DNA from: a virus
Taxonomy: Duplodnaviria; Heunggongvirae; Uroviricota; Caudoviricetes
Reading direction: 5' to 3' (one strand)
DNA: 64,000 nucleotides
IMG/VR virus record: IMGVR_UViG_2703718819_000006
Shown here: positions 4,497 through 56,600 of the stretch, piece by piece
Layout of the letters: each line of letters begins with the position of its first letter
Position numbering within the stretch: position 1 is the stretch's first letter
Translations under genes and position numbers: made by a program
The notes under the pieces: model-generated
What the model was told of the DNA's origin: nothing
The model's database searches: none
The model's input: only the letters and a program-made list of their open reading frames with translations

Positions 4497-4517
4497 GCGT
4501 TTAAACAAGTTGTTATC
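4497..4517. promoter_or_regulatory. AACAAnTTGTT palindrome upstream of nrdB
   Basis: Minus-strand GATAACAACTTGTTTAAAC about 30 nt upstream of the nrdB ATG; similar sites at 18315-18332, 44135-44151, 47067-47084. Confidence 0.3.
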
Positions 4518-4577
4518 TTATGTGTTTAAACAAGGCTTACAAATCAAAGAGAAGGTGGGGATATCCCCCACCATATG

Positions 4578-16277: not shown

Positions 16278-16667
16278 TCACTCCGATACAAGACGTTTAT
16301 ATGCTTCGATGTCTCGACGTGCTTCACCGAGTTTTCTTCTTAGGTCCATATTTTCTGATTCAAGTTTTTCAATGTTTTTTTGGTATCGGCCACGATGTTC
16401 TTCCCAGGCATCCTGATATGCCTTCATATATGTCGTATTAGCCTTTCTTTTTGCCTGACGAACCGCGTGGTGATTTTCTACAAACCAGTCAGGGTCGTTA
16501 AATGCTGCTCTTGCGCATTTATACCAATAATCGGTTGACTCTCTGTTTAACCAATGAATGGTGATAAATGGTAATCGAATAGACAGAATTTTTCGTTTGG
16601 AATCTCGCTCACCAAACATATGCCCTTTTTTTATCTTTAAACCGAACCCAGGTTGAATTAAAAGCAT
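16278..16667 (-). CDS. hypothetical protein with C-terminal coiled-coil
   Basis: 129-aa ORF (true start may be the internal MFGERD); C-terminal heptad-like region. Confidence 0.45.
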   Translation of the reverse strand: MLLIQPGFGLKIKKGHMFGERDSKRKILSIRLPFITIHWLNRESTDYWYKCARAAFNDPDWFVENHHAVRQAKRKANTTYMKAYQDAWEEHRGRYQKNIEKLESENMDLRRKLGEARRDIEAYKRLVSE

Positions 16668-16687
16668 TGTCAGTACCTCAGATGCAT

Positions 16688-17428
16688 TTATGGCAGTAAT
16701 TCTTTACCGCTTTCCATTTTGGTGATAGAGACAGTAGGATCATCGTTAATGCATGATTCTGTGCCTAATGCTGCTAACCCTTTACGCATAACCGTGCCCG
16801 CAACATACGCCTCAATCTCCGCCTTTCCAGATGAGACAATTTCATCCATTTGTTCCTGCATTAATTCGGTAGCAAAGCACAGATTTTCAGGAAGGTTAGC
16901 TACAGCAGATGCTAGTTTTCTATATAGTTCTTCAAGGTCACGTTTTCCAGCTCTTCCTTTTTTCACAAGTTCACCTAGCTCTGAAACTTGCTGATTAAGT
17001 CGATCAATCTCACTATTCGTAGCGGCCTTTATTTGATCGTTGAATTTTTGCCGAATACTTTTTTGCTCGGCAATATCATGAACTCTAATTGAGTCTCCAA
17101 TGGTTTTATATGAAATAGTGCATGGCACACCTTCGCCCACTCCAAAACTGCTAACCATAGCAGCCCATTGTGCCTGGCTAAGTCTAATTTCAACTAAAGG
17201 CCGTCTATTGCAACTTCTTTGTGGGCGGGTTCGTTCATTGTCTAAGGACAGTTCCGCCTCGTAAACGCCTATTTCAATATAGTCTCTATGTTCCAGTTCT
17301 GAATCAAATAGGCGAATGCCAGTTGTGCTAACACGGCTTGTTTTCACAAGACCGAACGCTGGATGTGTTTGAATTTTTTCCCCATGTTTATTAAGGGTCG
17401 TTTTTGGTTCTTCAATTTTTCTTTTCAC
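16688..17428 (-). CDS. hypothetical protein
   Basis: 246-aa ORF; no motif assigned. Confidence 0.5.
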   Translation of the reverse strand: MKRKIEEPKTTLNKHGEKIQTHPAFGLVKTSRVSTTGIRLFDSELEHRDYIEIGVYEAELSLDNERTRPQRSCNRRPLVEIRLSQAQWAAMVSSFGVGEGVPCTISYKTIGDSIRVHDIAEQKSIRQKFNDQIKAATNSEIDRLNQQVSELGELVKKGRAGKRDLEELYRKLASAVANLPENLCFATELMQEQMDEIVSSGKAEIEAYVAGTVMRKGLAALGTESCINDDPTVSITKMESGKELLP

Positions 17429-17474
17429 CTTATTAACCTCTATGCTTCATGCGTAAAGCTAAATGACAATTTTT

Positions 17475-18299
17475 TTAATATCCGGCGTATTCGTATTCTT
17501 CATTTAGACCGTATTCTTGTGGAGTGATACCAGGACAACATAACTCAAAGGCGAACTTGCGCCATTTGATTTTTTCTTCTGACGATTGTTTGTTATTCGC
17601 CGGTGCAATGTAGTCATATTCCCATTTGCCGTTGCGAAGTAAAATGAATCCGCAGTTATTGCCGAAGTCTTCGTCTGCATAACGTATTACAAACTCAAGG
17701 TGCGGGAACTTTCTAGCCATCGCTTGATAAATTGGTTTTGGCATAGACCAGGCTGTTTCAAAGCGAATCACCAACTCACCACCAGTTGCGGCATGTCTTG
17801 CAAGACGTTTTTTATAGATTCGTTTTGCATATGCTCGAACGTGTGTATGGCGGAAATTATGGCCGTACTTAATACGTGTAGGGATACGTTTTACGGGCAT
17901 TTCGATGTTGTAGGCATTCCATTTTGTTCCCCAATTAGCTCGCGACCAGTCAAACCATGAGTAATAGCCATAGCGACGATAATTCTCAAGCCGCATAAGA
18001 GCCTGCTCTTTGATTTTGCGAATTTCCTTGCGTGTCATTCCTGATTCACGCATAGCTAATTCGATCTGTTCTGGAGTCTTTAATTCACCGAACATGTGGT
18101 CGTAAACTGTTTCGCCCGCCATTGCAGAGGCCATGCGCCTGATATGATTGTTTTCTTCCATTTCTATACTTTTCGGACGTCTGCAAATGGTATTAAAGTC
18201 AATTAGACCTTTTTTGTTAGTTATGGCACGTATGAAATCTAAGCGTTGTTTATTTGTACCACCTATGACTCGGATTTCGTTTGTAATGTGGTTGGGCAT
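17475..18299 (-). CDS. hypothetical protein (Trp/Tyr-rich motif YSWFDWSRANWGTKWNAYN)
   Basis: 274-aa ORF; preceded by an AACAATTTGTT palindrome 20-40 bp upstream. Confidence 0.5.
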   Translation of the reverse strand: MPNHITNEIRVIGGTNKQRLDFIRAITNKKGLIDFNTICRRPKSIEMEENNHIRRMASAMAGETVYDHMFGELKTPEQIELAMRESGMTRKEIRKIKEQALMRLENYRRYGYYSWFDWSRANWGTKWNAYNIEMPVKRIPTRIKYGHNFRHTHVRAYAKRIYKKRLARHAATGGELVIRFETAWSMPKPIYQAMARKFPHLEFVIRYADEDFGNNCGFILLRNGKWEYDYIAPANNKQSSEEKIKWRKFAFELCCPGITPQEYGLNEEYEYAGY

Positions 18300-18350
18300 A
18301 ATTAACTTAACCTTTTAACAAATTGTTTTCTTGTGTGTGATAATAACGAG

Positions 18351-18376
18351 AATAAAACGGCGTCCAACTGGACGCC
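18351..18376 (-). terminator. rho-independent terminator after SPFH gene
   Basis: Stem GGCGTCC/GGACGCC with AACT loop, followed on the minus strand by GTTTTATT. Confidence 0.6.
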
Positions 18377-19521: not shown

Positions 19522-21861
19522 TTACTCTTCTACTGACTCGGTGGGATTGTCTTTTGATCTCCGGTCGTCGATTGCCTGTAAAGCCGCAATGATTTCAGCT
19601 AGTGGCTTCTCCCGATACATCTCGACGATCTGTGATTTGGTGTATTTCTTGTCACCAATTTCTACTCGACCGCTGGCGTTCTTTGGCAGGTATCCTTCTT
19701 CCAGCATGTACTCGACGAGCGACTCGATAACGTCGAGGCCACGAGTAGGATCGAAGTAGAATTTCCAGGTGCATTTGCCATACGGTGGTGCAACTTTGTT
19801 TTTGATGCACTCTGCGCCTACGTCCTGGCCGATCTTCTCTTTCCCATCCTTCATCACCGATGCACCGAGACGGATGCGCACAGAAGCGTAAAACTTCGGT
19901 GAATCGCCGCCTGGAGACGTAGTAGGGTCGCCAAACATTACACCGATTTTTGTGCGAACCTGATTCAAGAAGATGATGCAGGCGTTGTATTTGCGTGCCC
20001 ACAAAGCCAGAGTAGGGAAGTTCGCACTCGTCGCACGAGCCAGCGCCGTATTGTCGTTCATGTTTAGCTGATCTTTGTCTTTGGCAGTGCCTTCAGCCAT
20101 CTTTTCGAACTTCTCGGCTTTGGAGTTCGGAACCATAGACGCAAGTGAGTCAGCCACGATACAGATAGGTGCTGATTCAGGAATAAGCTCTTCATCACGT
20201 ACCAATTTAAGAATTGTGCCGATCAACTCTACAGAGTCTTCGAAGGTATCAGGCTGCTTGTATACCCACTGACCGTCATCCTCATCTGCATTCAAACCAT
20301 TGGCTACAGCCAGGCCAACGTCAAAACTGTTTTCATGATCGAGGAATACCGCCAGACCATCTTGTTTTTGAGCGGAGATCATCGCTGCTGTTGCAAGGAA
20401 TGTGTTGTGGCTGATAATCCCGTTAGACCAGAAAGAGTGTGTTTCCGGCATCGCTACGTCGAACGTTGGTGCTTCACCTTCCTCAATAGCCACGACTTCG
20501 TCGTAGAACAAGTTAGAGCCAATTACCGCTGCCAGTTGTGCAAACAGATGCTCGTTAAAACGATTCTTTCTGCCAATGAAGGAGACATAGATTTCTCGCA
20601 GTTTGTCTATTCCGACACGATCGCCGCGGCCAATAACGTGGTCTACCAGAGCGTAGTCTTCACGGGTGGTCTTGGTGAGCGACTCGTAGAGTGATTTCAC
20701 TAAGCCGCTGATGTGCGGAACATAGCCTGAGTAAGTGCGGTCAAAACCAATGTCCCGTTTGGTTGCCACTGATAAACGTGCCGGAGATTCGAAACCAATC
20801 GTTGACAGAAAAAGGTCGTAATTAGAGCCACTGAATGACAGCCGGTAATATGTATTTTCATAACCCGCGACGTGTTTTTCAGAGATAGTTGACGTAATCC
20901 CCAGATTCAGGAGCATGAGGCGAATTTGCTGTAGCAGCAGCCCACTCGCGCTCACAACCTCAATGCAGCGACCATCATTGACGTGGCATTCCAGCTCAAA
21001 GTAGCCGCGAAGGAATGCAATTTGAGCCTCGCTATTGGCGCGACGCACACTCAACGGAACCTGCTTGCCAGCAGCTTTCTCATACTCCAGACCATATTCT
21101 TTAAAAAGCAGCGAACGCACCTCTTTGCTAAACAGCACATGGTCTTCCGAGCCGTTATGTTTTCTCGTAACTGGCATCTTGTCTGATACCAGCGAAATGA
21201 GGCGGTAGTACTCATCCTTGATGAAAGGATCTGTGTTAGAAAAATTCACTGAATTTTCAGAGGCCACGTATCCGTCAGCAATTAAATAGCCCATCAGTTT
21301 TGCGATATTGGCATCCAGGTGCTGATCGCCGAATTGATGTGTGCCAACCATTGAAGGAATCGTGTCGCCTACACTGATTTTTTCAGCATGTCGCCAGACG
21401 ACATTACCTAAGTCGTCAACCACACGGATTGGGTGACGGAACGTAGCCTCGATATAACCGCCTGATGCCAGCTTAATACGCTTGAATTTGCGACGGTTGT
21501 TCCATGTCAGGTGTGAGGTCTTCTCTATCACGCCATTTTCATTGATGAGTCCAACGTTATGCTCTACATCGCGAGTAGTGCATGTCGCTTTGTACCCTTC
21601 AATCTCAAACAACTCTTTCACTGTTACCATTCCACGCTCCGTCAGCAGCATGGTGTCTGCGGTAACACATTTCCCCGCGCTTGGAGGACCGAATACTTCT
21701 ACGATACGACCACATGGGAAACCGCCATCGTAACGACCGGAAATAGCTTTGTTTAACGGAGGAAAGCCTGTGTCAATCCAATGAGTTACTTTCTGAATTT
21801 CGTCGTTGCTACCGATTTTCTTTTTCAGAGCAAGTGCCAGTGCGGATTTTCCTTTTGCCAT
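19522..21861 (-). CDS. recA: RecA/UvsX-family recombinase interrupted by an intein
   Basis: 779 aa. Exteins (about 357 aa) carry GRIVEVFGPPSAGK|T and IIFLNQVRTKIGVMFGDPTTSPGGDSPKFYASVRIRL, closely paralleling E. coli RecA as recalled. Confidence 0.85.
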   Translation of the reverse strand: MAKGKSALALALKKKIGSNDEIQKVTHWIDTGFPPLNKAISGRYDGGFPCGRIVEVFGPPSAGKCVTADTMLLTERGMVTVKELFEIEGYKATCTTRDVEHNVGLINENGVIEKTSHLTWNNRRKFKRIKLASGGYIEATFRHPIRVVDDLGNVVWRHAEKISVGDTIPSMVGTHQFGDQHLDANIAKLMGYLIADGYVASENSVNFSNTDPFIKDEYYRLISLVSDKMPVTRKHNGSEDHVLFSKEVRSLLFKEYGLEYEKAAGKQVPLSVRRANSEAQIAFLRGYFELECHVNDGRCIEVVSASGLLLQQIRLMLLNLGITSTISEKHVAGYENTYYRLSFSGSNYDLFLSTIGFESPARLSVATKRDIGFDRTYSGYVPHISGLVKSLYESLTKTTREDYALVDHVIGRGDRVGIDKLREIYVSFIGRKNRFNEHLFAQLAAVIGSNLFYDEVVAIEEGEAPTFDVAMPETHSFWSNGIISHNTFLATAAMISAQKQDGLAVFLDHENSFDVGLAVANGLNADEDDGQWVYKQPDTFEDSVELIGTILKLVRDEELIPESAPICIVADSLASMVPNSKAEKFEKMAEGTAKDKDQLNMNDNTALARATSANFPTLALWARKYNACIIFLNQVRTKIGVMFGDPTTSPGGDSPKFYASVRIRLGASVMKDGKEKIGQDVGAECIKNKVAPPYGKCTWKFYFDPTRGLDVIESLVEYMLEEGYLPKNASGRVEIGDKKYTKSQIVEMYREKPLAEIIAALQAIDDRRSKDNPTESVEE
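20404..21669 (-). mobile_element. intein (about 422 aa) with LAGLIDADG homing-endonuclease domain, inserted in the RecA P-loop
   Basis: Starts with Cys right after GPPSAGK (CVTADTMLL...) and ends ...GIISHN followed by Thr (the extein T of GKT); internal LMGYLIADGY and FLRGYFELEC motifs. Confidence 0.75.
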
Positions 21862-27800: not shown

Positions 27801-28356
27801 ATGGGGTAGGGTGCGGATAAACCACACTATAGAAGTTGTCTTTTCCACCCGCTGTAATCAGTGAGCTTATGATTTTTGCAAAATCGTTGCGTTGGAACAC
27901 GCTACCGATGTCGGAAGTGAGCAGGATGATGTTGCCTTTGGCATATGTAGAAACCAACTGTTCGAGCGAGAGACGCGGTACAAAGTAGAACTGTTCTCGT
28001 GTGTTGGCCACCGTCATTAGTTCGCAGATGTCGCGATATCCTTGCTCATTTTTAATTAGAGCGGTAAACGAGTAGTTACGTCCTCGCTCTAATGATTCCA
28101 TACATCCCTTAGACTCTTTAGCAATTTTAGCCCGGTACTCGTATGTGGGATCATCAACGATATTTAGTTTCACACCACAAATAACCGCCATGTCGTCACC
28201 AGCGGCACGTTGTAGTGGAATAACGCTCGCAATATTCATGCTATCTGCTGAAATTACAGCGGTGTAGCCAGCTTCTCTGGCAATCTTCACCGCGTTTTCT
28301 GCTTTTAGAGCCGACTCCCCAAGTGAGAAGTCAGTTCGAACCATCAGTGCCTTCAT
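24838..28356 (-). CDS. dnaE: DNA polymerase III alpha-like replicative polymerase (DnaE family)
   Basis: 1172 aa; core motif [27 protein letters not shown] matches DnaE (GPGRGSGAGSLVAY...) as recalled; N-terminal PHP-like region appears to lack the usual His cluster. Confidence 0.9.
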   Translation of the reverse strand: [1172 protein letters not shown]

Positions 28357-28534
28357 GTGTTTTTACCTTTCTGGTTTTTTTGATTTTGTCATTGGGGAAG
28401 CCTACGAACTTCCCATGCATCGAAATCGCAACTTCTTTTGCTGATTGGTGACAATCGGGCTTGTCTGGACACACCAGACAAGCCTTACCAGTTTCAGAAG
28501 CAGCGATAAGAGAGCCGAAACATCCTTTACGCAC
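28331..28534 (-). CDS. possible small Cys-rich (zinc-ribbon-like) protein
   Basis: 67-aa ORF with CLVCPDKPDCH; overlaps the polymerase start by 26 nt. Confidence 0.25.
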   Translation of the reverse strand: MRKGCFGSLIAASETGKACLVCPDKPDCHQSAKEVAISMHGKFVGFPNDKIKKTRKVKTHEGTDGSN

Positions 28535-28536
28535 GA

Positions 28537-29772
28537 TTAACCAAATATTTTTTGAACAACTTCACGAGCCGCTTGTGCAGAAGCTGAAGGGAGTTTGTTA
28601 ATGAAAGAACGCTCAATACCTGTCACAAAGTCGCCTCGCATCATTCCAATCTTGGCCGACAACAAAAGTTCACGAGGGCCAATTGGCTGACTAATAAGGT
28701 GTTCTTCGTATCCATCGCGAACGATACCGGCAAACTTAACCATCTTTTCAGCGTATTCATCCACGATGCCTGCATTTATCAACATGTTGATCTCTGCGTC
28801 TTTGCTCATGTATTTCACATTCGAAACGATGCCAAAACGCGAAAAGTTCGCGGCGTTCTGGATGTTTGTACCCTGGTACAAGCCGGTTTCATCACCAGAT
28901 CCGTTCGTGTTGCCAGTGCCAATGAAAGCAAACCGTTCATGCGGAGTAATGCGACGCCATTCTGGAGTCGCCTCTTTGATGACCAACGCTTCACCTTCCA
29001 GCACTGGCTGATACACGCCAAGAATCTGTGGAAACGCAAAGTCGTATTCATCCGCGAGGTAAACCCAGCCATGCTTCATTGCGAGCGCAAGCAAGCCAGG
29101 CTCGAAATACGTAGAGCCATCACGCGCCAGAATTTGCCCCGTAACATGTGCCTCTTCCATTGATGCTGTATGTTGGGCACGGATCAACGGACGATTGAGC
29201 AAAGCACATAGCTGTGTAGGCAATGACGATTTGCCTGTTCCTGCATGACCCCACAAATAGCCAGGTATGCCAAGTTCAAGCATCATGAAAATGTCTTTGA
29301 TCAGTTCGAAGTCGCCATATACGTATCCCTTCTTCACTTCTGGAACGAACTCTGGAAACGGCGTATTGACGTTGACGCTAACCATGAGCGGCGTCCCACG
29401 TTTTGTTCCGAGTTCTTTCACCGTTACATTTAGCAGTTCGTGAGCTGCGACCAGATCTGTCTTGTACTCAACTGTGCCTGTGTAGCCTGGGCTACTGGTC
29501 ACGCCAGATGATTTGGCCATTTCGCTTTTTTGCTCGGCACGTTTAGCTTGAATTGCATCAAGTGCCTTTTTCGATAGCGTTGGCTCATCTGGAAACTGTG
29601 TTGTGTACATTTTCAGTACGGTGTCAGGATCGGCATCTTTTACTGACTCAGGAATGCCCTCGCAATTACCATTGGCTACATGGGACTTAAAATAGTGAAA
29701 TGATTTTCCGCACCACTTGCAAACAAGGTAATCAGAAGGATTTTTTTCATTTTGCAGTGCAGTAGTAGTCAT
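28537..29772 (-). CDS. AAA+ ATPase (MoxR/CobS-like) with N-terminal zinc ribbon
   Basis: 411 aa; N-terminal CKWCGKS...NGNCEG; Walker A GHAGTGKSS; Walker B VYLADEYDF. Confidence 0.75.
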   Translation of the reverse strand: MTTTALQNEKNPSDYLVCKWCGKSFHYFKSHVANGNCEGIPESVKDADPDTVLKMYTTQFPDEPTLSKKALDAIQAKRAEQKSEMAKSSGVTSSPGYTGTVEYKTDLVAAHELLNVTVKELGTKRGTPLMVSVNVNTPFPEFVPEVKKGYVYGDFELIKDIFMMLELGIPGYLWGHAGTGKSSLPTQLCALLNRPLIRAQHTASMEEAHVTGQILARDGSTYFEPGLLALAMKHGWVYLADEYDFAFPQILGVYQPVLEGEALVIKEATPEWRRITPHERFAFIGTGNTNGSGDETGLYQGTNIQNAANFSRFGIVSNVKYMSKDAEINMLINAGIVDEYAEKMVKFAGIVRDGYEEHLISQPIGPRELLLSAKIGMMRGDFVTGIERSFINKLPSASAQAAREVVQKIFG

Positions 29773-29867
29773 GCGTTTTTCCTTTGTTTTCTAATGAGCG
29801 TTCAACTTCTTATATAAATATATCATTAACTATCGTAAGTGGTTACTTATCATTAAGGCTGTTTTAT

Positions 29868-31976
29868 TCACTTCAAAATGATACGAGATAGTTCAGTAAC
29901 TACAGATGAACCAAGACTATCAACGCTCGTTACCAGGGCATGATTTGAGTAAAATCTCTCCGGTGCGTCAGTCATGATGCCAATTGCCATCAAATCAATG
30001 TCAGTCTGCGTTTCAATTTGCTTCGCAACCGAACGCAAATGAGCGTCAAAACCTCTCCCAACAGCCAACGGCGCGCCATCACTCAGAACAAGCATGATCT
30101 TCCTGTCCTCCATGCGACCGGAAAATAACGATGCAAGGCTGGCTATGCTTTCACCATCCACGTTATTAAGAAGTGGGAATGTGTAGCCTACGCACCCCAT
30201 ACGTGAGCGAACTTCGCGAGAATTTACCTTTTCATTCCAATTTTTGATGATAGGTAGCATTAAAGATTCAAAGCGAGAGAACTCATACTTGACAGCCTTA
30301 AGTTCTCCTGCCGCCATATGACTACCAAATGTAGTGAAGCCGGTGATAATGTTGGGAACATTTATTCGATCAAGGGCATCGGCGATGGTATATGCACTTG
30401 CAAGAGCCAATTGTATCGTTATACCACTCATTGAACCTGATAAATCAATCACTTGTTGAACACAGGCGTTAACGGCTTTAGATTCTTCTTTTTTACGAAA
30501 CACGCGATCATCATTCATTGCTAATCTGTAGATACTAGAACCATGAATGCGCCCCCGACGCTGGCCCGGTATAAACTGAACTCTGTTTCTGCTTGCTATT
30601 GCTCGCTCCAGATCTTTTGCCAGCGTCGACGAAACACCTGACGAAAGATGCTTTTCAATATATTTGTCGAAGAGCTGGTTGCCTTCAGGAACGATGCGAT
30701 AGCGGCTGATTGGATATCCTCCTAAATCAATATCGGAGAATGTTTTAATAAGCCGTTTGATATGGGCTTCTGCCTGATCAATCGAGCCGATGAAGTCGTA
30801 TGAGCGATTGTATGGTCTGTATTCGCTTTTCGAGCTTTCTGTTAACTCGCTTTTAATCGTTTCGGATAGCGCATCTTCTGTCATGCCTCCGACTTCATCT
30901 TCCATGCTATCCAACTCCTCTAAAGCCTCTTCCAGACTCATTTTTGACGGAGTTGGAATGTCTGAAGAGCCGTCTTCTGTCGATTTTCTTTTTTCGTGGT
31001 CAGTGGTAAATGATTCTGACGCCGCGTTATCAGAAGCACCAGAATCTGATACCTCTTTATCATTTTCTGTATCATCGAATATTGTTTCTGATGATTCAGA
31101 ATTATCTGAATCATCACTGTCGTTATTATCATGTTTGTGCTTACTGTGTGATTCTGATTTGATAGATTTGTGATTATCTACCGCTGAGGGTGTCTCATGA
31201 TCTTCGTTGTCTTCATTGTTTTCTCCAGAGGCATCCGTCTGGTCAGCGTCTGAAGGATCGGAAGTTTTTCCCGGAGCTGACTCCTTACCTTTGCTTTCAC
31301 TTTCAGTGTCTTTGAGGATCTTAGCTATGGTCGCAGCCACCTTTACACAATCCTCGGTGCAAGACATGTTACGCACGGCCACATCGATACCATGTTCTTT
31401 TAATAATGAAATTGGTTTCTCAATGACAGGCCAATATTCATCCATGAAATCTACGAACGGTGCTTGGCCATCCCAGGCTCTTACAACCGGACAGAGAAAG
31501 AAGTTTAGAAAAAGCGCGCGCTGATCTTTGCCACAATAAGCAATAGCCTCTGAAGCCTTTGGTTTAAAGACTTTTTCGATTATAAGGCGCTGAGTTGCCA
31601 TCAGATTACGTCTTGTTCCGTTAAAGACCTGACCCATTTTTCGCTCGATGAACACGTCTTCTAAGGCATTCCATAGCGACCAGGAAGGAACGCGTCCCTT
31701 TTCTCTCATTTTGTTGGACACACGAATATCGGTAAACAAAATGTGAGCAACCTCATGATCGAGAAATCCGCGCACAGCATTCATCAATGCCGGTGTTGCG
31801 TTATCCGGGATTGATGGGATGTTTACGAGAATTGGCTCTCCATCATCGTTATAGCGTACATAAGCGTCGTCCCCTCGTTCTGCAACAGGGATGTTTTTAC
31901 CTGAAAGGAGAGCGACTACTCGTTTTACACTGTCACGGAAGTCCTGAACCTCTTTGATGGAACGTTTTTTAGACAT
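29868..31976 (-). CDS. vWA-domain protein (CobT-like) with long acidic Ser/Asp/Glu-rich disordered region
   Basis: 702 aa; MIDAS-type DLSGSMSG and LVLSDGAP motifs in the C-terminal half; central region about 150 aa rich in D/E/S. Confidence 0.7.
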   Translation of the reverse strand: MSKKRSIKEVQDFRDSVKRVVALLSGKNIPVAERGDDAYVRYNDDGEPILVNIPSIPDNATPALMNAVRGFLDHEVAHILFTDIRVSNKMREKGRVPSWSLWNALEDVFIERKMGQVFNGTRRNLMATQRLIIEKVFKPKASEAIAYCGKDQRALFLNFFLCPVVRAWDGQAPFVDFMDEYWPVIEKPISLLKEHGIDVAVRNMSCTEDCVKVAATIAKILKDTESESKGKESAPGKTSDPSDADQTDASGENNEDNEDHETPSAVDNHKSIKSESHSKHKHDNNDSDDSDNSESSETIFDDTENDKEVSDSGASDNAASESFTTDHEKRKSTEDGSSDIPTPSKMSLEEALEELDSMEDEVGGMTEDALSETIKSELTESSKSEYRPYNRSYDFIGSIDQAEAHIKRLIKTFSDIDLGGYPISRYRIVPEGNQLFDKYIEKHLSSGVSSTLAKDLERAIASRNRVQFIPGQRRGRIHGSSIYRLAMNDDRVFRKKEESKAVNACVQQVIDLSGSMSGITIQLALASAYTIADALDRINVPNIITGFTTFGSHMAAGELKAVKYEFSRFESLMLPIIKNWNEKVNSREVRSRMGCVGYTFPLLNNVDGESIASLASLFSGRMEDRKIMLVLSDGAPLAVGRGFDAHLRSVAKQIETQTDIDLMAIGIMTDAPERFYSNHALVTSVDSLGSSVVTELSRIILK

Positions 31977-32074
31977 GGCTAATCCTTTGTTATGAAAACA
32001 AATTATTTACTAGTGTGTTTAATGTAGCACTGCGCGAACAGGGAACTAAGCCATTCGCGCAGGGAGAAGAGGGG

Positions 32075-32538: not shown

Positions 32539-32925
32539 ATGTCTGATAACAAGATTGAATTTATAGAAAGTCGCTATGCTGCTTTTATCGCAGGGCTGAT
32601 TGAATCCTCACCTATGAGTCAGGCCCAAATAGCCAGACTTATTGGTTATAAAAATGCCAACAACCTTTCTTTAATTAAAAGTGGCAAAATTCCTTTGCCT
32701 ATCGATAAGGTTCGTCCGTTGGCGCTGGCGCTGGGTATTGAGCCAAGTCGTCTTATGATGATGGTGCTGGAAGAACGCCAACCTGAACTCGCAGCATTTT
32801 TATACAAAGAAGGCACCGCTCCTCTTAACGAGGACGAAAAACAGGTTCTTGCTGCATATAACGAGCGATTCGGTAAAGAGAAAGGCGCATCACAAAAGGT
32901 TGTTGAGGCTATAAAGTCTCTATGA
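32539..32925 (+). CDS. XRE-family helix-turn-helix transcriptional regulator
   Basis: 128-aa plus-strand ORF; MSQAQIARLIGYKNANNLSLIKSGK resembles an HTH_XRE helix-turn-helix. Confidence 0.6.
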   Translation: MSDNKIEFIESRYAAFIAGLIESSPMSQAQIARLIGYKNANNLSLIKSGKIPLPIDKVRPLALALGIEPSRLMMMVLEERQPELAAFLYKEGTAPLNEDEKQVLAAYNERFGKEKGASQKVVEAIKSL

Positions 32926-47033: not shown

Positions 47034-47351
47034 TGGAGAGTTCCCTTTGCGTATATAATTATCGTCTGAAACAACTTGTTTTCTTATATGTGATATAGCC
47101 TAAATGCCTACGGCTGCGGTGTAAAGGTTAAATGGTAGGTTGTGATTAACAATTGGCAAACATAGCTTGTATTTGTCTGTTGAAAAAAGTAACAATGACC
47201 TCTATATTACAAGTACGGTGATATGCCGTACACAATTTGATAATGCACACGTAATGGGCTATAGCCTTTTAAAGTAATTTTTGAGTCGAAAACTCAGTTT
47301 GAACAGAGGAGATTGATGGCCTTCCTACATCACGGCCATCAGGAGGAATAC

Positions 47352-47621
47352 ATGTCAGCACTAAAAAAGCAGCGCATCGATTTGAGATTAACCGATGACG
47401 ATAAAAGCATCATCGAGGAAGCTGCCGCAATGTCTAACCAGAGCATTACTCAGTTTATGGTTAGCAGTGCATCTGAACGTGCCGTGAAAGTTATAGAGCA
47501 ACACCGTAGACTAGTTCTGAATGAAGAATCCTGGAATCTGGTTATGGACGCTATAAGCAATCCTCCGGCACCGAACGACAAGCTGAAACGAGCTGCTGAT
47601 CGTCTGAAAAGCATGGAGTAG
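47352..47621 (+). CDS. antitoxin of GNAT-toxin TA system (DUF1778/TacA-like)
   Basis: Start placed at the ATG 6 nt after an AGGAGG Shine-Dalgarno (MSALKKQRIDLRLTDDDKSIIEEAA...); 8 nt upstream of the GNAT gene. Confidence 0.7.
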   Translation: MSALKKQRIDLRLTDDDKSIIEEAAAMSNQSITQFMVSSASERAVKVIEQHRRLVLNEESWNLVMDAISNPPAPNDKLKRAADRLKSME

Positions 47622-47628
47622 TTTACTC

Positions 47629-48150
47629 GTGGATAATATAAAGATAGAAATTTTCTCTGGAGAGAAAGATTATGATTTGAATGGTTTTGATTGCGGTGAA
47701 GAATCACTAAATGCCTTTTTAACCAACCACTTAAAAAGGCAGCATGAGGGAAAAATTCTTCGTGCTTATGTGCTTTGCACGAAAGAAGGCAGACCAAAAG
47801 TGTTAGGGTATTACACTTTGTCAGGTAGCTGCTTTGAAAAGGAGTCCTTACCTTCAAGAAGCCAGCAAAAGAAGGTACCTTATCGGAATGTTCCAAGTGT
47901 TACTTTGGGTAGGCTGGCTTTGGACAAGTCCCTTCAAGGTCAAGGATTTGGCTCAATGCTTGTAACACATGCAATGCGCGTTGTGTACAATGCATCTCTT
48001 GCTGTAGGCATTCATGGACTTTTCGTTGAGGCGTTAAATGACAAAGCCAAGGCGTTTTATAAAAGTTTAGACTTTATCCAGCTGGTTGGTAACAACGAGC
48101 GTTCTTTGTTCTATCCTACAAAATCTATCGAAAAATTGTTCGAAGAATAA
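47629..48150 (+). CDS. GNAT-family acetyltransferase toxin (TacT/AtaT-like)
   Basis: 173 aa; acetyl-CoA-binding QGQGFG motif; GTG start; paired with the upstream antitoxin. Confidence 0.75.
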   Translation: MDNIKIEIFSGEKDYDLNGFDCGEESLNAFLTNHLKRQHEGKILRAYVLCTKEGRPKVLGYYTLSGSCFEKESLPSRSQQKKVPYRNVPSVTLGRLALDKSLQGQGFGSMLVTHAMRVVYNASLAVGIHGLFVEALNDKAKAFYKSLDFIQLVGNNERSLFYPTKSIEKLFEE

Positions 48151-52700: not shown

Positions 52701-53580
52701 GTGCAGCCTCATCTTTTGAAGCAGAAGCAGAACTCTCTGATGAAGACGCAGAACTTGCAGATTCAGCAGCTGCGGCCATAGAGGAAGCCGCATTGTCTTC
52801 TGAAGCCTTTGCATTTAATTCAGATGACTTTGCTTCTAATGCATAATTTTTCGCAGTTGTTGCCTGATTTGTGGCCTCTATAGCTTTTTCATTAGCCGCA
52901 GCAGCTGCTGATGATGCGATAGCCTCCGATTGTGCAGCTGCTTCTTTTGCTAATTCTGCGTTCGTTTCAGATACCCTTGAAGCAGACTCACTCGCGCTAG
53001 CGGCACTTTGTGACGAAGCTGCAGCCTGTGCACTTTGAGACGCTTGAGAGGCTTTTTCTCCAGCGGTATTGGCGCTTTCTGCTGCTGCGGCAGCACTGGC
53101 CGCCGCCTCACGAGCTTTGTCGCCAGCAGCATCAATCGCGTCAGTGTTATTTTTATACCACTCAACGTTTTCGTTGTGCTCGTTGACGATCTGCATTAGC
53201 GGCTTAACGGTCACTTCTGTACCGTCTTCACGCTCGATTGTCACCTCATCCAGAGCAGTCAACCAACTGCGCATGGACTTGGAATCAGCTGACATACGCG
53301 ACATTAGCGCAGTAAAGCGCGCGCTAAACTGTGTTAAGTCGCCTTCATAGGTCGTAATGATTCGGCACGGAACTTCAGACTGAGTTTCGCCGGTATAAGG
53401 TTCTGAGAGAACAATATTCGTATCACTGGTTACACGCTTGATCTCATACAGCTTATTGTCGGGACCAATGACGATCATTCCCGGCAACACACCATTAGCT
53501 GTTACGTTCCAGGCTGTCCCAACCCCAACTAGAGTATTACTACCCTGTGTAAATGTGATAGTACCTTCCCTGTACCACAT
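49738..53580 (-). CDS. side tail fibre protein with C-terminal intramolecular-chaperone (peptidase S74-like) domain
   Basis: 1280 aa; Ala/Ser/Glu-rich coiled region; five copies of a GN(Q/A)(N/S)TTGNAATATKLQTAR...FDGSA repeat; C-terminus (NMYIDPN...SRRYKKDIETL...YGLIAEEV...) resembles the self-cleaving chaperone of T5 pb1 and endosialidases. Confidence 0.85.
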   Translation of the reverse strand: MWYREGTITFTQGSNTLVGVGTAWNVTANGVLPGMIVIGPDNKLYEIKRVTSDTNIVLSEPYTGETQSEVPCRIITTYEGDLTQFSARFTALMSRMSADSKSMRSWLTALDEVTIEREDGTEVTVKPLMQIVNEHNENVEWYKNNTDAIDAAGDKAREAAASAAAAAESANTAGEKASQASQSAQAAASSQSAASASESASRVSETNAELAKEAAAQSEAIASSAAAAANEKAIEATNQATTAKNYALEAKSSELNAKASEDNAASSMAAAAESASSASSSESSASASKDEAARQASEAAGSAVIASTKATEAAGSATAASQSKTAAESAATRAEAAADRAEEIADAVAMEDASLTTKGVVKLSSAVDSTSESLAATPKAVKAANDNANSRVPSNRKVNGKALTADITLTPKDIGTLNSVTMSFSGGAGWFKLATVTMPQASSIVYIALIGGAGYNVGSPHQAGISELVLRAGNGNPKGITGALWKRTAVGLTNFAWINTSGDTYDIYVEIGNYATSVNIHWDCTANASVSIYTSPTYSASKPSSATDGVVYTMYSTHQKPTPLDIGALPTTGGTVSGPLSVTGGITGTLNGNASTATKLQTARSIGGVGFDGSANINLPGVNTTGNQNTTGNAATATKLQTARTIGGVSFDGTANINLPGVNTTGNQNTTGNAATATKLQTARTINGVSFDGSANISLSPANIGCPASPTGWLTTGSNGGAITTAQLVTLLQNNGAFNTKSWIARCAWAYANSATIPNSETGCGVIPLAGAVIEVFNNGSSSNNYTIRITTATTTSVSGALTNAEFIYVFNGTDYSPGWRRVYNTKNKPTASDVGALPLTGGTLSGGLTSSGEIVSKYANGFRIAYGSFGFFIRNDGGSTYFMLTASGDTLGSWNGLRPITINNTSGVVSIGNGLNVTGGVNGSLNGNASTATKLQTARNINGVRFDGSGDININTLVSRGRVTALSGSTQGTAGIQMYEAYNNSYPTTYGNVLHMKGASAAGEGELLIGWSGTSGAHAPVFIRSRRDYTGAAWSEWAQVYTAKDSIPGVNTTGNQNTTGNAATATKLQTARKIAGVAFDGSADITLTATNLNAYTKTEVTNLLSSYASRSSLTGYSGNLDIIAETLVVKSGGSGGFAIWDIGTTTSGANMYIDPNPGINTVWRSTSSRRYKKDIETLQDRYADELLSLRPVWYRSICRGDRKDWGYYGLIAEEVGEIAPQYVHWREPTNNDSPEDISSNGMVAEGVMYERLVVPLIHHIQQLTKRVEELETKLNSREE

Positions 53581-53672
53581 GTTGAATATGCTCCTTGATT
53601 TGGTGGGCTATCCTTGCCCACCATAAAGTAAGTACCTACTTATTTTTACCGATGTAAATATTTTTTTCTACA

Positions 53673-56600
53673 TTACAGAAGGCCAATTCTTACTCGTAGG
53701 ACGTTGTTATCGTCATAAACGTCAATCCGCTGACCATTTATGACCAGTCGCCCATTACCTCCGCTATTACCGTTGATCTCAAGCGTTCCATTTTTGCCAA
53801 ACCGCCATCCAGATCTACCGCTAACAAAATTGGTAGATTGCAGATCACCTACCTTTGCATTGGTGATTGTACCATCCTTGATATACGCACCATTCATGTA
53901 AGCGATACTGTTTTCGATAACAAATGGCGTGGTGATCTGCCCGTTTACTGAGTTAACCAAACCAAATCTATCAGCCTGCACCAAAAACTGAGAAAGACCT
54001 GTTGTGTCAATTCCAAGAGCAATGCCTGCAACGTACTTCTGTCCTCCGCTAGTGGAGGTTTCCATTTTCAACGTATACGCAGTTGATACTTTTCTGTTTG
54101 TATCAGCAATAGCTGTCGCCTGCTGTTGAATTGTTGCACTATTTCCATTCACCTCAGCTCTAAGAGTATCAATTCGACCACCCAGAGCATTATCTGCCTG
54201 CGTTCTCGCTGTCGTTTCGGTTGTGACCGCCGCAGAAATGTTGGCTGCTGTTTGAGACTCTAAATTTGTGATTTGAGTCGCCAATGCAGCATCCTGCTCT
54301 GTACGTGTTTGCGTCTCAGTTGCAATCGCAGCTTTTATGTCGTCCTTATATTTGGAGGTTAGTGTGGTAATCCGCGATGATAATGCCGAGTCAGCATCAA
54401 CCCTGGCCTGTGCTTCAGTTGTTATATCTGCTCTAATATCATTCGTCGTCTGAGTTATTAAACTTGATAAATCTCTTGTTAAAGCCTCATCACCATCTGC
54501 TCGAGCAGTTGTCTCTCTGGCAATATACGCCTCGAGATCATTAGCTTTTGCTGTAAGAGATGTAATCTGGCTGGATAATGCGCTATCGGCATCCGTCCTT
54601 GCCTTTGTCTCTACAGCAACAGCTGCGGCAATATCAGTTCCGGTCTGCGCTCGCAGGCTGTTAATTTCTCTGGATAACGCCTCATCAGCACTTGCTCTTG
54701 CTTCCTGCTCTTGAGTAATGGCTGCTGATATATCATCGTCAACCCGTGCCCGGAGTTGGTTTATTTGTTGGGCTAAAGCAGAGTCCCCGTTTGCACGAGC
54801 CTCCTGCTCACTACGTATTGCAGCAGAAATATCATCATCAACTTTTGCCTGAAGTTGAGTGATCTGGCTTGCCAGCGCAGAATCTTCCGTTGCTCGTGCT
54901 TCTTGCTCCTCCCTAATTGCCGCTACGATATCGTCACTTACTTTTGACTCAAGCTGAGTGATCTGTGTTGTCAGAGCCTCATCAGCAGATGCACGAGCCT
55001 CCTGTTCTGTGCTAATCGCCGCGCTGATATCTCCTTCAAACTTAGATTGCAGCTGAGTTACACGGTTTGACAACGCTTCATCACCATCTACGCGCGCGGT
55101 AGATTCTTCCAGAATGCTACTCCTGATGTCTTCTTCAAGTTCAACACGAATCTCTTCAACCTTCGTAGCCATTGCAGACATATCATCAGCAAAGGTTTTC
55201 TGTGTTGTTGAGATCTTCGCGTTATTGACCATCTGCTTGTGCTGGTCTTCATCTTGACGAAGAGCCAGGTCAATATTTGTTTTGGCCAACGCCTCAATGT
55301 TCGTAGTAAGTTCTGCGCTGGCACGATCGACCTCTGCAACCGTCTTTTTCATTTCTTCAACGGCAGCGGAGCTTTCCTCTACCGTTGACTGCAACACTTC
55401 CAGTTGTTTAGCGTTTGCAGCATCACCTTCTACACGAGCCTCGCGCTCCTCAGCAATAAGAGCCGCAGCTTCGTTTCTTGCCGCACTTATCGCCTCGGCT
55501 GCGTTAGCAAGTGCAGTATCGTGTTCAGATACGGTGTTTTCGATTTCAACAATTGCAGCATTAGTAGCATCAATTTTTTCAAACGCTTCATTGACCTTAT
55601 CGATCGTTGCAGAAACCTCACCTCTAAGCTCGTTTTGCGCACTCTCCAAAGCATCGCTGCGCTCATTGAAGGTTATTTCAAAGTCCGCGATGTTGTCGCT
55701 GAACTGCTTTTCTAAGTCAGCTATATCTTCCTTAACGTTGTTTACCGTCCCCTCCAAAGATTCGACGCTCTGGTTGATATGATCATTTAACTCGTCAACT
55801 GCTTCTTGAGAGGCTTTGCTGTTGATGTCCTCAAGCAGAGCCTGACCAAGCTCAGACGATGTAATCTTACCTTCCAGGAACGACAATACATCGCGAGTTG
55901 TCGCCTCTGTACCCAAGTTTGAGTTCGGAGGACTTAACATGCCGCGCTTGTTCGATGCTCGAATCCAGTAATACCACGTTTCGCTATCCCCAAGACCAGC
56001 ATGTGTAAAGGTGGTGCTTGCAGACTCTGCGATCAGTGTCGCCATATCCAGATTGTTGGTCTGGGATGCGTAAACATTAATGTGATCAAGGTCTACCGAA
56101 TCTGGATTAATCCAATTCAGTATCACATTACGATAGTCTCCAACGGCCGTTAATGACGTTGGTGCATCAGGCGGTGTCATTGTGCCCAGCACCTGATAAA
56201 CGGTACTGATAATCTCTGTTTTTTTACCGTTGAATGAAACCGCATACAGTTGGAAGTCGTAGCGTCCATTCTCCGCGACATTAACGATTTCGTATTGCTC
56301 TTCGGTTACACGTGCCGATTGCCAGTTCGATACATTGTTTTCATCAGAACGTCGCCAACTGATCCAATACTCTGGAGATTTCCCTTCCCATGTTGCAGTC
56401 AGTTTTACTGACAGGTTGCCTGGGCTTGAGAGATAAGTCCCTTCGGTGATTTGCAAATTAGACGGCTTGGAGTAAGTCGGGTCCAATACCGTCGTATTCT
56501 GCGGGATAAGCGTTGCACCATTGTCAATCGCCTCATATTTAGACGGATTGTTCTCAACAGCGGTGATGTCAAAGCTACCCGGCGTTTCCCCCTGCGCGAT

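Follow-up and report, generated by a model that had tools for sequence, protein, structure and literature searches.

Api92 and the YubB protein of plasmid F are among the closest described relatives of the protein considered here. Api92 is encoded by the adhesion pathogenicity island of Yersinia pseudotuberculosis, contains the Pfam domains DUF1281 and DUF1281_C, and has a structure obtained by structural genomics (PDB 2IJR). In plasmid F (NC_002483), a 145-aa ORF of the leading region at 53343-53780, with sopB on one side and the first listed hypothetical gene on the other, is a clear Api92/YubB-type DUF1281_C protein (2IJR residues 168-274, E 4e-16); this ORF is missing from the PLSDB gene table. 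Supplementary file 3 of Samuel et al. (Nature 2024; PMC11541004) lists DUF1281/YubB as 'Uncharacterized' under leading-region family 27, the 27th largest. This family has 1,949 members; its FDR p is 0, and its median distance to oriT amounts to 22 genes. A search of the literature on DUF1281, Api92, PF18406 and YubB retrieved no functional study.

The window, i.e. the whole 64,000-nucleotide stretch of viral DNA that was analysed, encodes a 274-aa protein of the YubB/DUF1281_C family on the minus strand at 17475-18299, with an ATG start. The preliminary description had recorded this ORF, though not its strand, and had left it outside any family. The ORF exists as described, and the earlier interpretation is partly supported: the family can be named, being already catalogued as DUF1281_C/YubB/Api92-like, and no function is assigned to any of its members. 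The sole Pfam hit was PF18406 (DUF1281_C, the ferredoxin-like domain of Api92-like proteins) over residues 171-242, with 57.8 bits against a curated gathering threshold of 22.8 bits (E 1.1e-15), and the same model was matched by 32 of 32 aligned homologues. When the protein was scanned against Pfam, the N-terminal model PF06924 (DUF1281) gave no match at E<=1, and it was also missing from the families that the 32 homologues hit at E<=0.01. This makes the protein a member of the DUF1281_C superfamily and not a canonical DUF1281 protein. Its entire length (residues 1-274) aligned with profile positions 1-236 of 236 of phrog_12644, whose function is unassigned (E 1.6e-105), and an NCBIfam scan returned nothing at E<=1.

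A word-indexed protein search retrieved 850 homologues at E<=1e-3, the named ones being called 'YubB ferredoxin-like domain-containing protein' or 'DUF1281 family ferredoxin-like fold protein'; the latter name is also given to identical copies of the gene in newer RefSeq records. In an exhaustive profile search, the number of representative clusters formed at 50% identity was 15,971 for E<=1e-3 and 9,979 for E<=1e-10, and nearly all matches start at residue 1 of profile and protein alike. Members occur in temperate phages and phage-plasmids, in the leading regions of conjugative plasmids, in ICEs and in giant viruses. Searches of PDB sequences with the protein or the 32-sequence profile gave noise only (R2 retrotransposon, dUTPase and thioredoxin, E >0.1), and the link to 2IJR was reached via structure comparison or with the F YubB ORF as a bridge. 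Membership of the family is secure, and the 850 homologues and 15,971 clusters mark the gene, on sequence grounds, as a real and selected coding sequence. Novelty is low because protein and family are already catalogued in Pfam, PHROGs and RefSeq and have a relative in the PDB: this is a 'known unknown' rather than a new kind of protein.

Conservation was assessed on 225 relatives, close homologues having been removed, which as a whole are no more than 25-35% identical to the query. Despite this divergence, M1, P2, N3, H4, N7, D34, F35 and P42 in the N-terminal part are each 92-100% conserved, as are G111, W115, W118, W123, G124, T125, K126, W127, N128, A129 and Y130, then F180, T182, A183, W184, P187 and P199, and finally A208, D209, E210, D211, G213, N215 and G217. 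The signatures read MPNHITN (residues 1-7), IDFN..P (33-42), the Trp-rich motif YSWFDWSRANWGTKWNAYN (113-131), FETAW..P (180-187) and YADEDFGNNCG (207-217). The Trp-rich motif had been singled out beforehand as distinctive and conserved-looking, and rightly so, ten of its residues being kept at 92-100% across the diverse relatives; such conservation at so low an overall identity makes YSWFDWSRANWGTKWNAYN one of five family signatures. The protein (32.6 kDa, pI 9.6) ends in an acidic/aromatic tail. No hydrophobic segment was found by a Kyte-Doolittle scan (maximum 19-residue mean 0.49), and the protein should therefore be soluble and cytoplasmic. A basic insertion at residues 134-172 (12 K/R, 0 D/E and 4 His) is present in part of the family only, mainly in an enterobacterial subfamily, and raises the pI, which is 8.4-9.7 for the full-length members of that subfamily. 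Outside the close subfamily the YubB-like proteins are acidic, with a median pI of 4.7 and 90% of them below 6, and often end in an acidic/aromatic tail such as NYEYVDD.

A confident AlphaFold2 model built from the 32-sequence alignment (pLDDT 91, pTM 0.84) showed significant three-dimensional similarity to Api92 (2IJR). The predicted chain begins with a strand (4-12) and a helix (16-26); helices are then inserted in the region from 35 to 122, and a strand (130-133) and a basic helix (154-171) come next. It continues with a strand (176-183), a helix (188-197), three strands (202-209, 216-222 and 225-231) and a last helix (240-254). The five signatures are located where predicted strands begin and end; in an antiparallel sheet they should thus meet on one edge and would make a pocket there. 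This single pocket would be lined by Trp/Tyr side chains, a Lys and a His, together with Asn residues and an Asp-Glu-Asp cluster. Two fold assignments were considered. A tautomerase with a catalytic N-terminal Pro was prompted by the invariant Met-Pro start, but the combination of a tautomerase fold with a strictly conserved Pro1 was not found. For a palm-like acidic hairpin as in nucleotidyl transferases or cyclases (YxDD or GGDEF), which would call for a further conserved acidic residue at the end of strand 1, there was no clear support.

We tentatively favour, at a little under an even chance, a small protein that acts on DNA or nucleotides, either as an enzyme or by binding a ligand. It would be a cytoplasmic, stand-alone member of the YubB/DUF1281_C/Api92-like ferredoxin-like alpha/beta family, whose pocket may bind, and probably process in a metal-dependent manner, a nucleotide, a nucleotide-derived small molecule, a DNA end or a base. 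The basic insertion would add affinity for nucleic acids in the enterobacterial subfamily. The role envisaged is to aid incoming or replicating mobile-element DNA, through support of recombination or repair or through counter-defence. Several observations place this role on the side of the mobile element, early in establishment or replication: the gene is accessory and stands alone, the contexts of the family are early regions, leading regions and polyvalent proteins, recombination and DNA metabolism dominate among the neighbours, and the invariant polar and aromatic residues look enzyme-like. A further-reaching version, rather unlikely but of larger consequence, holds that the clade defined by MPNH, WGTKWNAY, TAW and ADEDxGxNxG is an unrecognised family of metal-dependent enzymes of which Api92 and YubB are degenerate, non-catalytic offshoots. 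If so, phages, plasmids, giant viruses and polinton-like viruses would use the enzymes of this clade across the divide between prokaryotes and eukaryotes. Their substrate would be a nucleotide, a signalling nucleotide, a DNA base or a DNA end, for instance in the degradation or sequestration of an immune signal or in the modification or repair of entering DNA. Functions outside all the readings discussed here keep a minor share of the probability.

The genomic contexts of the relatives bear on this choice. Relatives of the 274-aa protein occur on 445 IMG/VR contigs, and in the loci examined they lie in early regions, flanked for example by a cI-like repressor and an integrase. Others adjoin SSB, a DNA methyltransferase and an HNH gene, Nmad5 and RNase T, or a KaiC/RecA-like ATPase. 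In 25 dereplicated loci, 121 ORFs lay no more than three genes away from the target; those that could be recognised were RecT, YqaJ/RecE-like exonucleases, RdgC, dNMP phosphatases, a methylase, Lar, a pentapeptide-repeat protein, an N antiterminator and LPD11. All-against-all ORF clustering of 87 loci revealed no consistently adjacent family that could be a conserved partner. Part of this setting would also suit a non-catalytic inhibitor of a host nuclease or of a restriction or defence complex, comparable to Gam, Ocr or ArdA and possibly a DNA mimic, which would protect the DNA of the element early after entry or induction. RecT/RecE-type recombinases, beside which relatives lie, are the usual neighbours of anti-RecBCD genes, relatives are found near Lar and methylases, YubB belongs to plasmid leading regions rich in anti-restriction genes, and in pPATH a DUF1281 gene adjoins an ArdC-like antirestriction gene (PMC10425158). 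The marked acidity of most of the family and its conserved acidic/aromatic C-terminal tails also fit an inhibitor. However, the window protein is basic, unlike a DNA mimic, and the YubB family had no sequence or structural hit to the anti-CRISPR and anti-restriction sets (Samuel et al., PMC11541004). Moreover, about 30 near-invariant positions, including buried-looking polar ones, are maintained across phyla and in giant viruses of eukaryotes, while inhibitors acting by binding usually evolve fast. An inhibitor is judged unlikely.

The element carrying the gene can be recognised from its surroundings. A 4-kb stretch around the 274-aa gene shows 99% identity with plasmids of ~109 kb from E. coli and Shigella sonnei, e.g. 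p09EL50 (NC_018651), as well as with 'Escherichia phage CMS-2020a', and its backbone genes are ~80% identical to those of Salmonella phage SSU5. Plasmid p09EL50 carries phage genes for capsid, portal, terminase and tail together with a RepB-type initiator, dnaE, nrdAB, thyA, a DnaB-like helicase, a ligase and a recA-like gene, and is typed as non-mobilizable. From this similarity and gene content, the window is part of an SSU5-like phage-plasmid. Some other genes of these elements deserve mention. Outside the window, NC_018651 harbours host-like metG (methionyl-tRNA ligase) and apbC genes amid phage genes at 28005-31296. The RecA-like gene of the window (19522-21861, minus strand, 779 aa; Pfam RecA, Intein_splicing and LAGLIDADG_3) contains an intein with a LAGLIDADG homing endonuclease in its Walker A loop, the insertion point being GPPSAGK|C...HN|TFLA. 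The p09EL50 allele is intein-free (357 aa), and that of phage Cyrano measures 2,340 nt, the length of the window gene. On the plus strand, a gene for a TacA-like antitoxin (PF08681) at 47313-47621 precedes one for a GNAT acetyltransferase at 47629-48150; this TacAT-type toxin-antitoxin pair, one of the few plus-strand units in the window, probably serves plasmid maintenance.

The 274-aa gene is followed on the minus strand by a 246-aa gene (16688..17428, phrog_6452), whose product has an N-terminal domain and a coiled coil, and by a 129-aa gene (16278..16667, phrog_1511). The latter shows ~82% DNA identity to a gene located beside ninE in lambdoid and Stx phages, which makes the 16278-18299 block a mosaic of imported genes. 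All three genes are missing in Cyrano, where the SPFH gene is directly followed by the DUF7238 gene; in phages Cyrano and PhiR41_1 and in plasmid CP053388, only 48% of the 4-kb query is matched. The 274-aa gene was found in 15 of 5,426 complete E. coli genomes, always plasmid-borne, and the adjacent SPFH gene has ~195 plasmid copies. PLSDB contains 386 records with the local backbone, of which only 25 cover at least 80% of the query, and protein-level relatives of the 274-aa protein were found in 46 plasmids. The 274-aa gene is a dispensable accessory gene of an SSU5-like phage-plasmid. In Salmonella elements the 246-aa neighbour is still next to it (66% and 61% identity), as it is in an SSU5-like element that is more distant (44% and 30% identity). 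Its family comprises 64 clusters, mostly from Enterobacteriaceae contigs of ~100-110 kb. An obligate two-gene system formed by the 274-aa and 246-aa genes was discarded since the 246-aa family also occurs in Klebsiella phage-plasmids, which yielded no relative of the 274-aa protein.

A variable three-gene block carried by a minority of otherwise near-identical plasmids could also be cargo of benefit to the host, i.e. a defence, superinfection-exclusion or toxin gene acting possibly with the two downstream genes. This is consistent with the prophage homologues, which lie close to the integrase end, a place of accumulation for morons and defence genes. Nevertheless, PADLOC gave no hit for the 274-aa protein and a single insignificant one (E 0.007) when the neighbours were included. 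There is no conserved partner either, the 246-aa neighbour occurring without the 274-aa gene. The gene is a single small one, and its other settings (plasmid leading regions, fusions to LPD28, giant viruses) point to the side of the invader; host-benefiting cargo is improbable.

The region upstream of the gene informs on its expression. A terminator-like hairpin, GGCGTCCAGTTGGACGCC then GTTTTATT (18359..18376, minus strand), follows the upstream SPFH gene, which suggests from the sequence that the 274-aa gene opens a new transcription unit. A purine-rich stretch, AAAAGGTTAAG (18306..18316, minus strand), is likely its ribosome-binding site. The palindrome AACAATTTGTT (AACAA-N-TTGTT), announced in the preliminary description as operator-like, is indeed present at 18317-18327, 17 nt from the ATG; it forms the 3' core of a longer asymmetric motif that may be promoter or operator. 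AACAAnTTGTT has four sites in the window, with one degenerate copy, and with one mismatch allowed it gave 9 strand-hits against 2.8 expected, a count reached by no shuffle. Alignment of the sites yielded ACAyAyWAGWAAAYAAnTTGTT(T). The window has 5 copies of this 22-nt motif, where 0.07 would be expected; all of them are on the minus strand and upstream of a gene start, ending 17-36 nt before the start codon. In addition to the copy of the 274-aa gene, ACACACAAGAAAACAATTTGTT (18317..18338), they precede nrdB (4504-4525), a CobT-like gene (31997-32018), a DnaB-like helicase gene (44138-44159) and a ParA-like ATPase gene (47070-47091). A weight-matrix scan of the whole p09EL50 detected ~15 sites on the minus strand, directly upstream of genes on that strand, compared with 0-2 in shuffles; about 10 of these genes come in addition to the five named above. 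The motif follows a terminator-like hairpin at the 274-aa gene and at least two other sites, and in Salmonella relatives a variant, AAGAAAACAAATTATTT, precedes the homologue of the 274-aa gene.

In Cyrano, the same motif and ribosome-binding site stand before the DUF7238 gene. The motif is therefore part of the backbone, and the three genes lie between it and DUF7238. Most simply, this distribution would make the motif a promoter or operator element of an early/replication regulon of the phage-plasmid. The C1 operators of phage P1 are dispersed through its genome, and scattered operators of the present kind would resemble them. The 274-aa gene, being the first of three between the backbone motif and the next backbone gene, would probably be switched on together with the replication and nucleotide-metabolism genes of the element. 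The element also encodes HTH regulators, one of them at 32539-32925. Other interpretations of the motif did not hold. As an RNA hairpin the palindrome would have a 5-bp stem with a 1-nt loop, which is not feasible, so that any symmetry would be read on DNA. No sigma-70 -10/-35 arrangement fits all sites, the -10-like hexamers lack a conserved final T, and only 17 nt lie between the motif and the ATG of the 274-aa gene. The motif also resembles AAAAUUGUUAUGUAA, the RNA target of T4 RegA; this likeness was dropped as a claim, the motif sites not overlapping start codons. The 274-aa protein could itself be a DNA-binding autoregulator recognising AACAAnTTGTT, given its basic character, the K/R-rich helix in 134-172 and the position of its gene directly behind the palindromic site. 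This is very improbable: Cyrano, which has no such gene, keeps the motif in position, so that the 274-aa protein cannot be the reader, which must be encoded elsewhere; no HTH or other DNA-binding domain was detected when the protein was scanned against Pfam; and most of the family is acidic and without the basic insertion. Finally, an iron-sulfur ferredoxin electron carrier, evoked by the Pfam name only and by cryptophyte polinton-like viruses whose DUF1281_C proteins are discussed as ferredoxins in a cyanophage-ferredoxin context (PMC12220804), can be put aside almost entirely, since 'ferredoxin-like' is the label of a beta-alpha-beta fold and none of the cysteines (C39, C216, C254 and C255) is among the 21 invariant alignment columns, which leaves no Cys cluster for ligation.

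The 274-aa copy itself, as an accessory 'hypothetical' of a common phage-plasmid, matters little. The family matters more: it counts ~16,000 clusters at 50% identity, has enzyme-like invariant residues, has been without a function so far, ranks among the most abundant conjugative-plasmid leading-region genes and extends to giant viruses. The E. coli copy offers a convenient entry to its function because the host is tractable and the gene is naturally present or absent in near-identical plasmids.

Cas2 and the dimeric alpha/beta-barrel 'Dabb' proteins give scores at the level of the fold only, with 6-13% identity over ~75 residues and no motif in common with the 274-aa protein, so that functional inference from them is unjustified. 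Api92 shares only 11-14% identity with the 274-aa protein at a global TM-score of ~0.37, a value implying that domain arrangement or insertions differ. Its alignment lacks the WGTKWNAY, TAW and ADEDxGxN signatures of the clade, and PF06924, which is part of Api92, is undetected in the 274-aa protein. The relation to YubB of plasmid F is one of sequence homology, the family profile matching the F ORF with E 3e-9 over the C-terminal half. YubB is the source of the UniProt and NCBI names given to the relatives and is likewise mobile-element-specific, early-expressed and uncharacterised. The F protein, however, consists of the C-terminal domain only, with degenerate motifs (YGVKG, FDTPW and YAEQGCNFCG), whereas the 274-aa protein has the full two-half architecture and the invariant N-terminus. 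The location differs as well: F YubB is plasmid-borne near oriT, and the 274-aa gene lies between the RepB-type initiator and recA of a non-mobilizable phage-plasmid. Since the invariant residues are kept neither in Api92 nor in F YubB, the solved structure represents a degenerate branch.

Other relatives are fusions (P0111, P0197, P0204 and P0208) in which the N-terminal ~230 residues form a YubB-like module and the C-terminal part is LPD28, a domain absent from the 274-aa protein. LPD28 is an uncharacterised polyvalent-protein-associated domain of phages and conjugative elements, for which an association with a metallopeptidase domain was reported (Iyer et al. 2017, PMC5512222). In another relative (P0236, 520 aa), the whole YubB-like module is tandemly duplicated and both copies are degenerate (MANS.., WGSTKNAY / WGVEFNAY); it may be a pseudo-dimer, which hints that the family works as dimers. 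A further related system is the phrog_12644 or 'MPNH-WGTKWNAY-ADED' clade of phages, prophages and giant viruses, which has all five motifs in common with the 274-aa protein and the same early-region context. Most members of this clade are acidic proteins of 205-260 aa, whereas the enterobacterial subfamily to which the window protein belongs, together with those of Salmonella, Pectobacterium, Dickeya and Pantoea, is basic and set apart by its insertion of ~38 residues.
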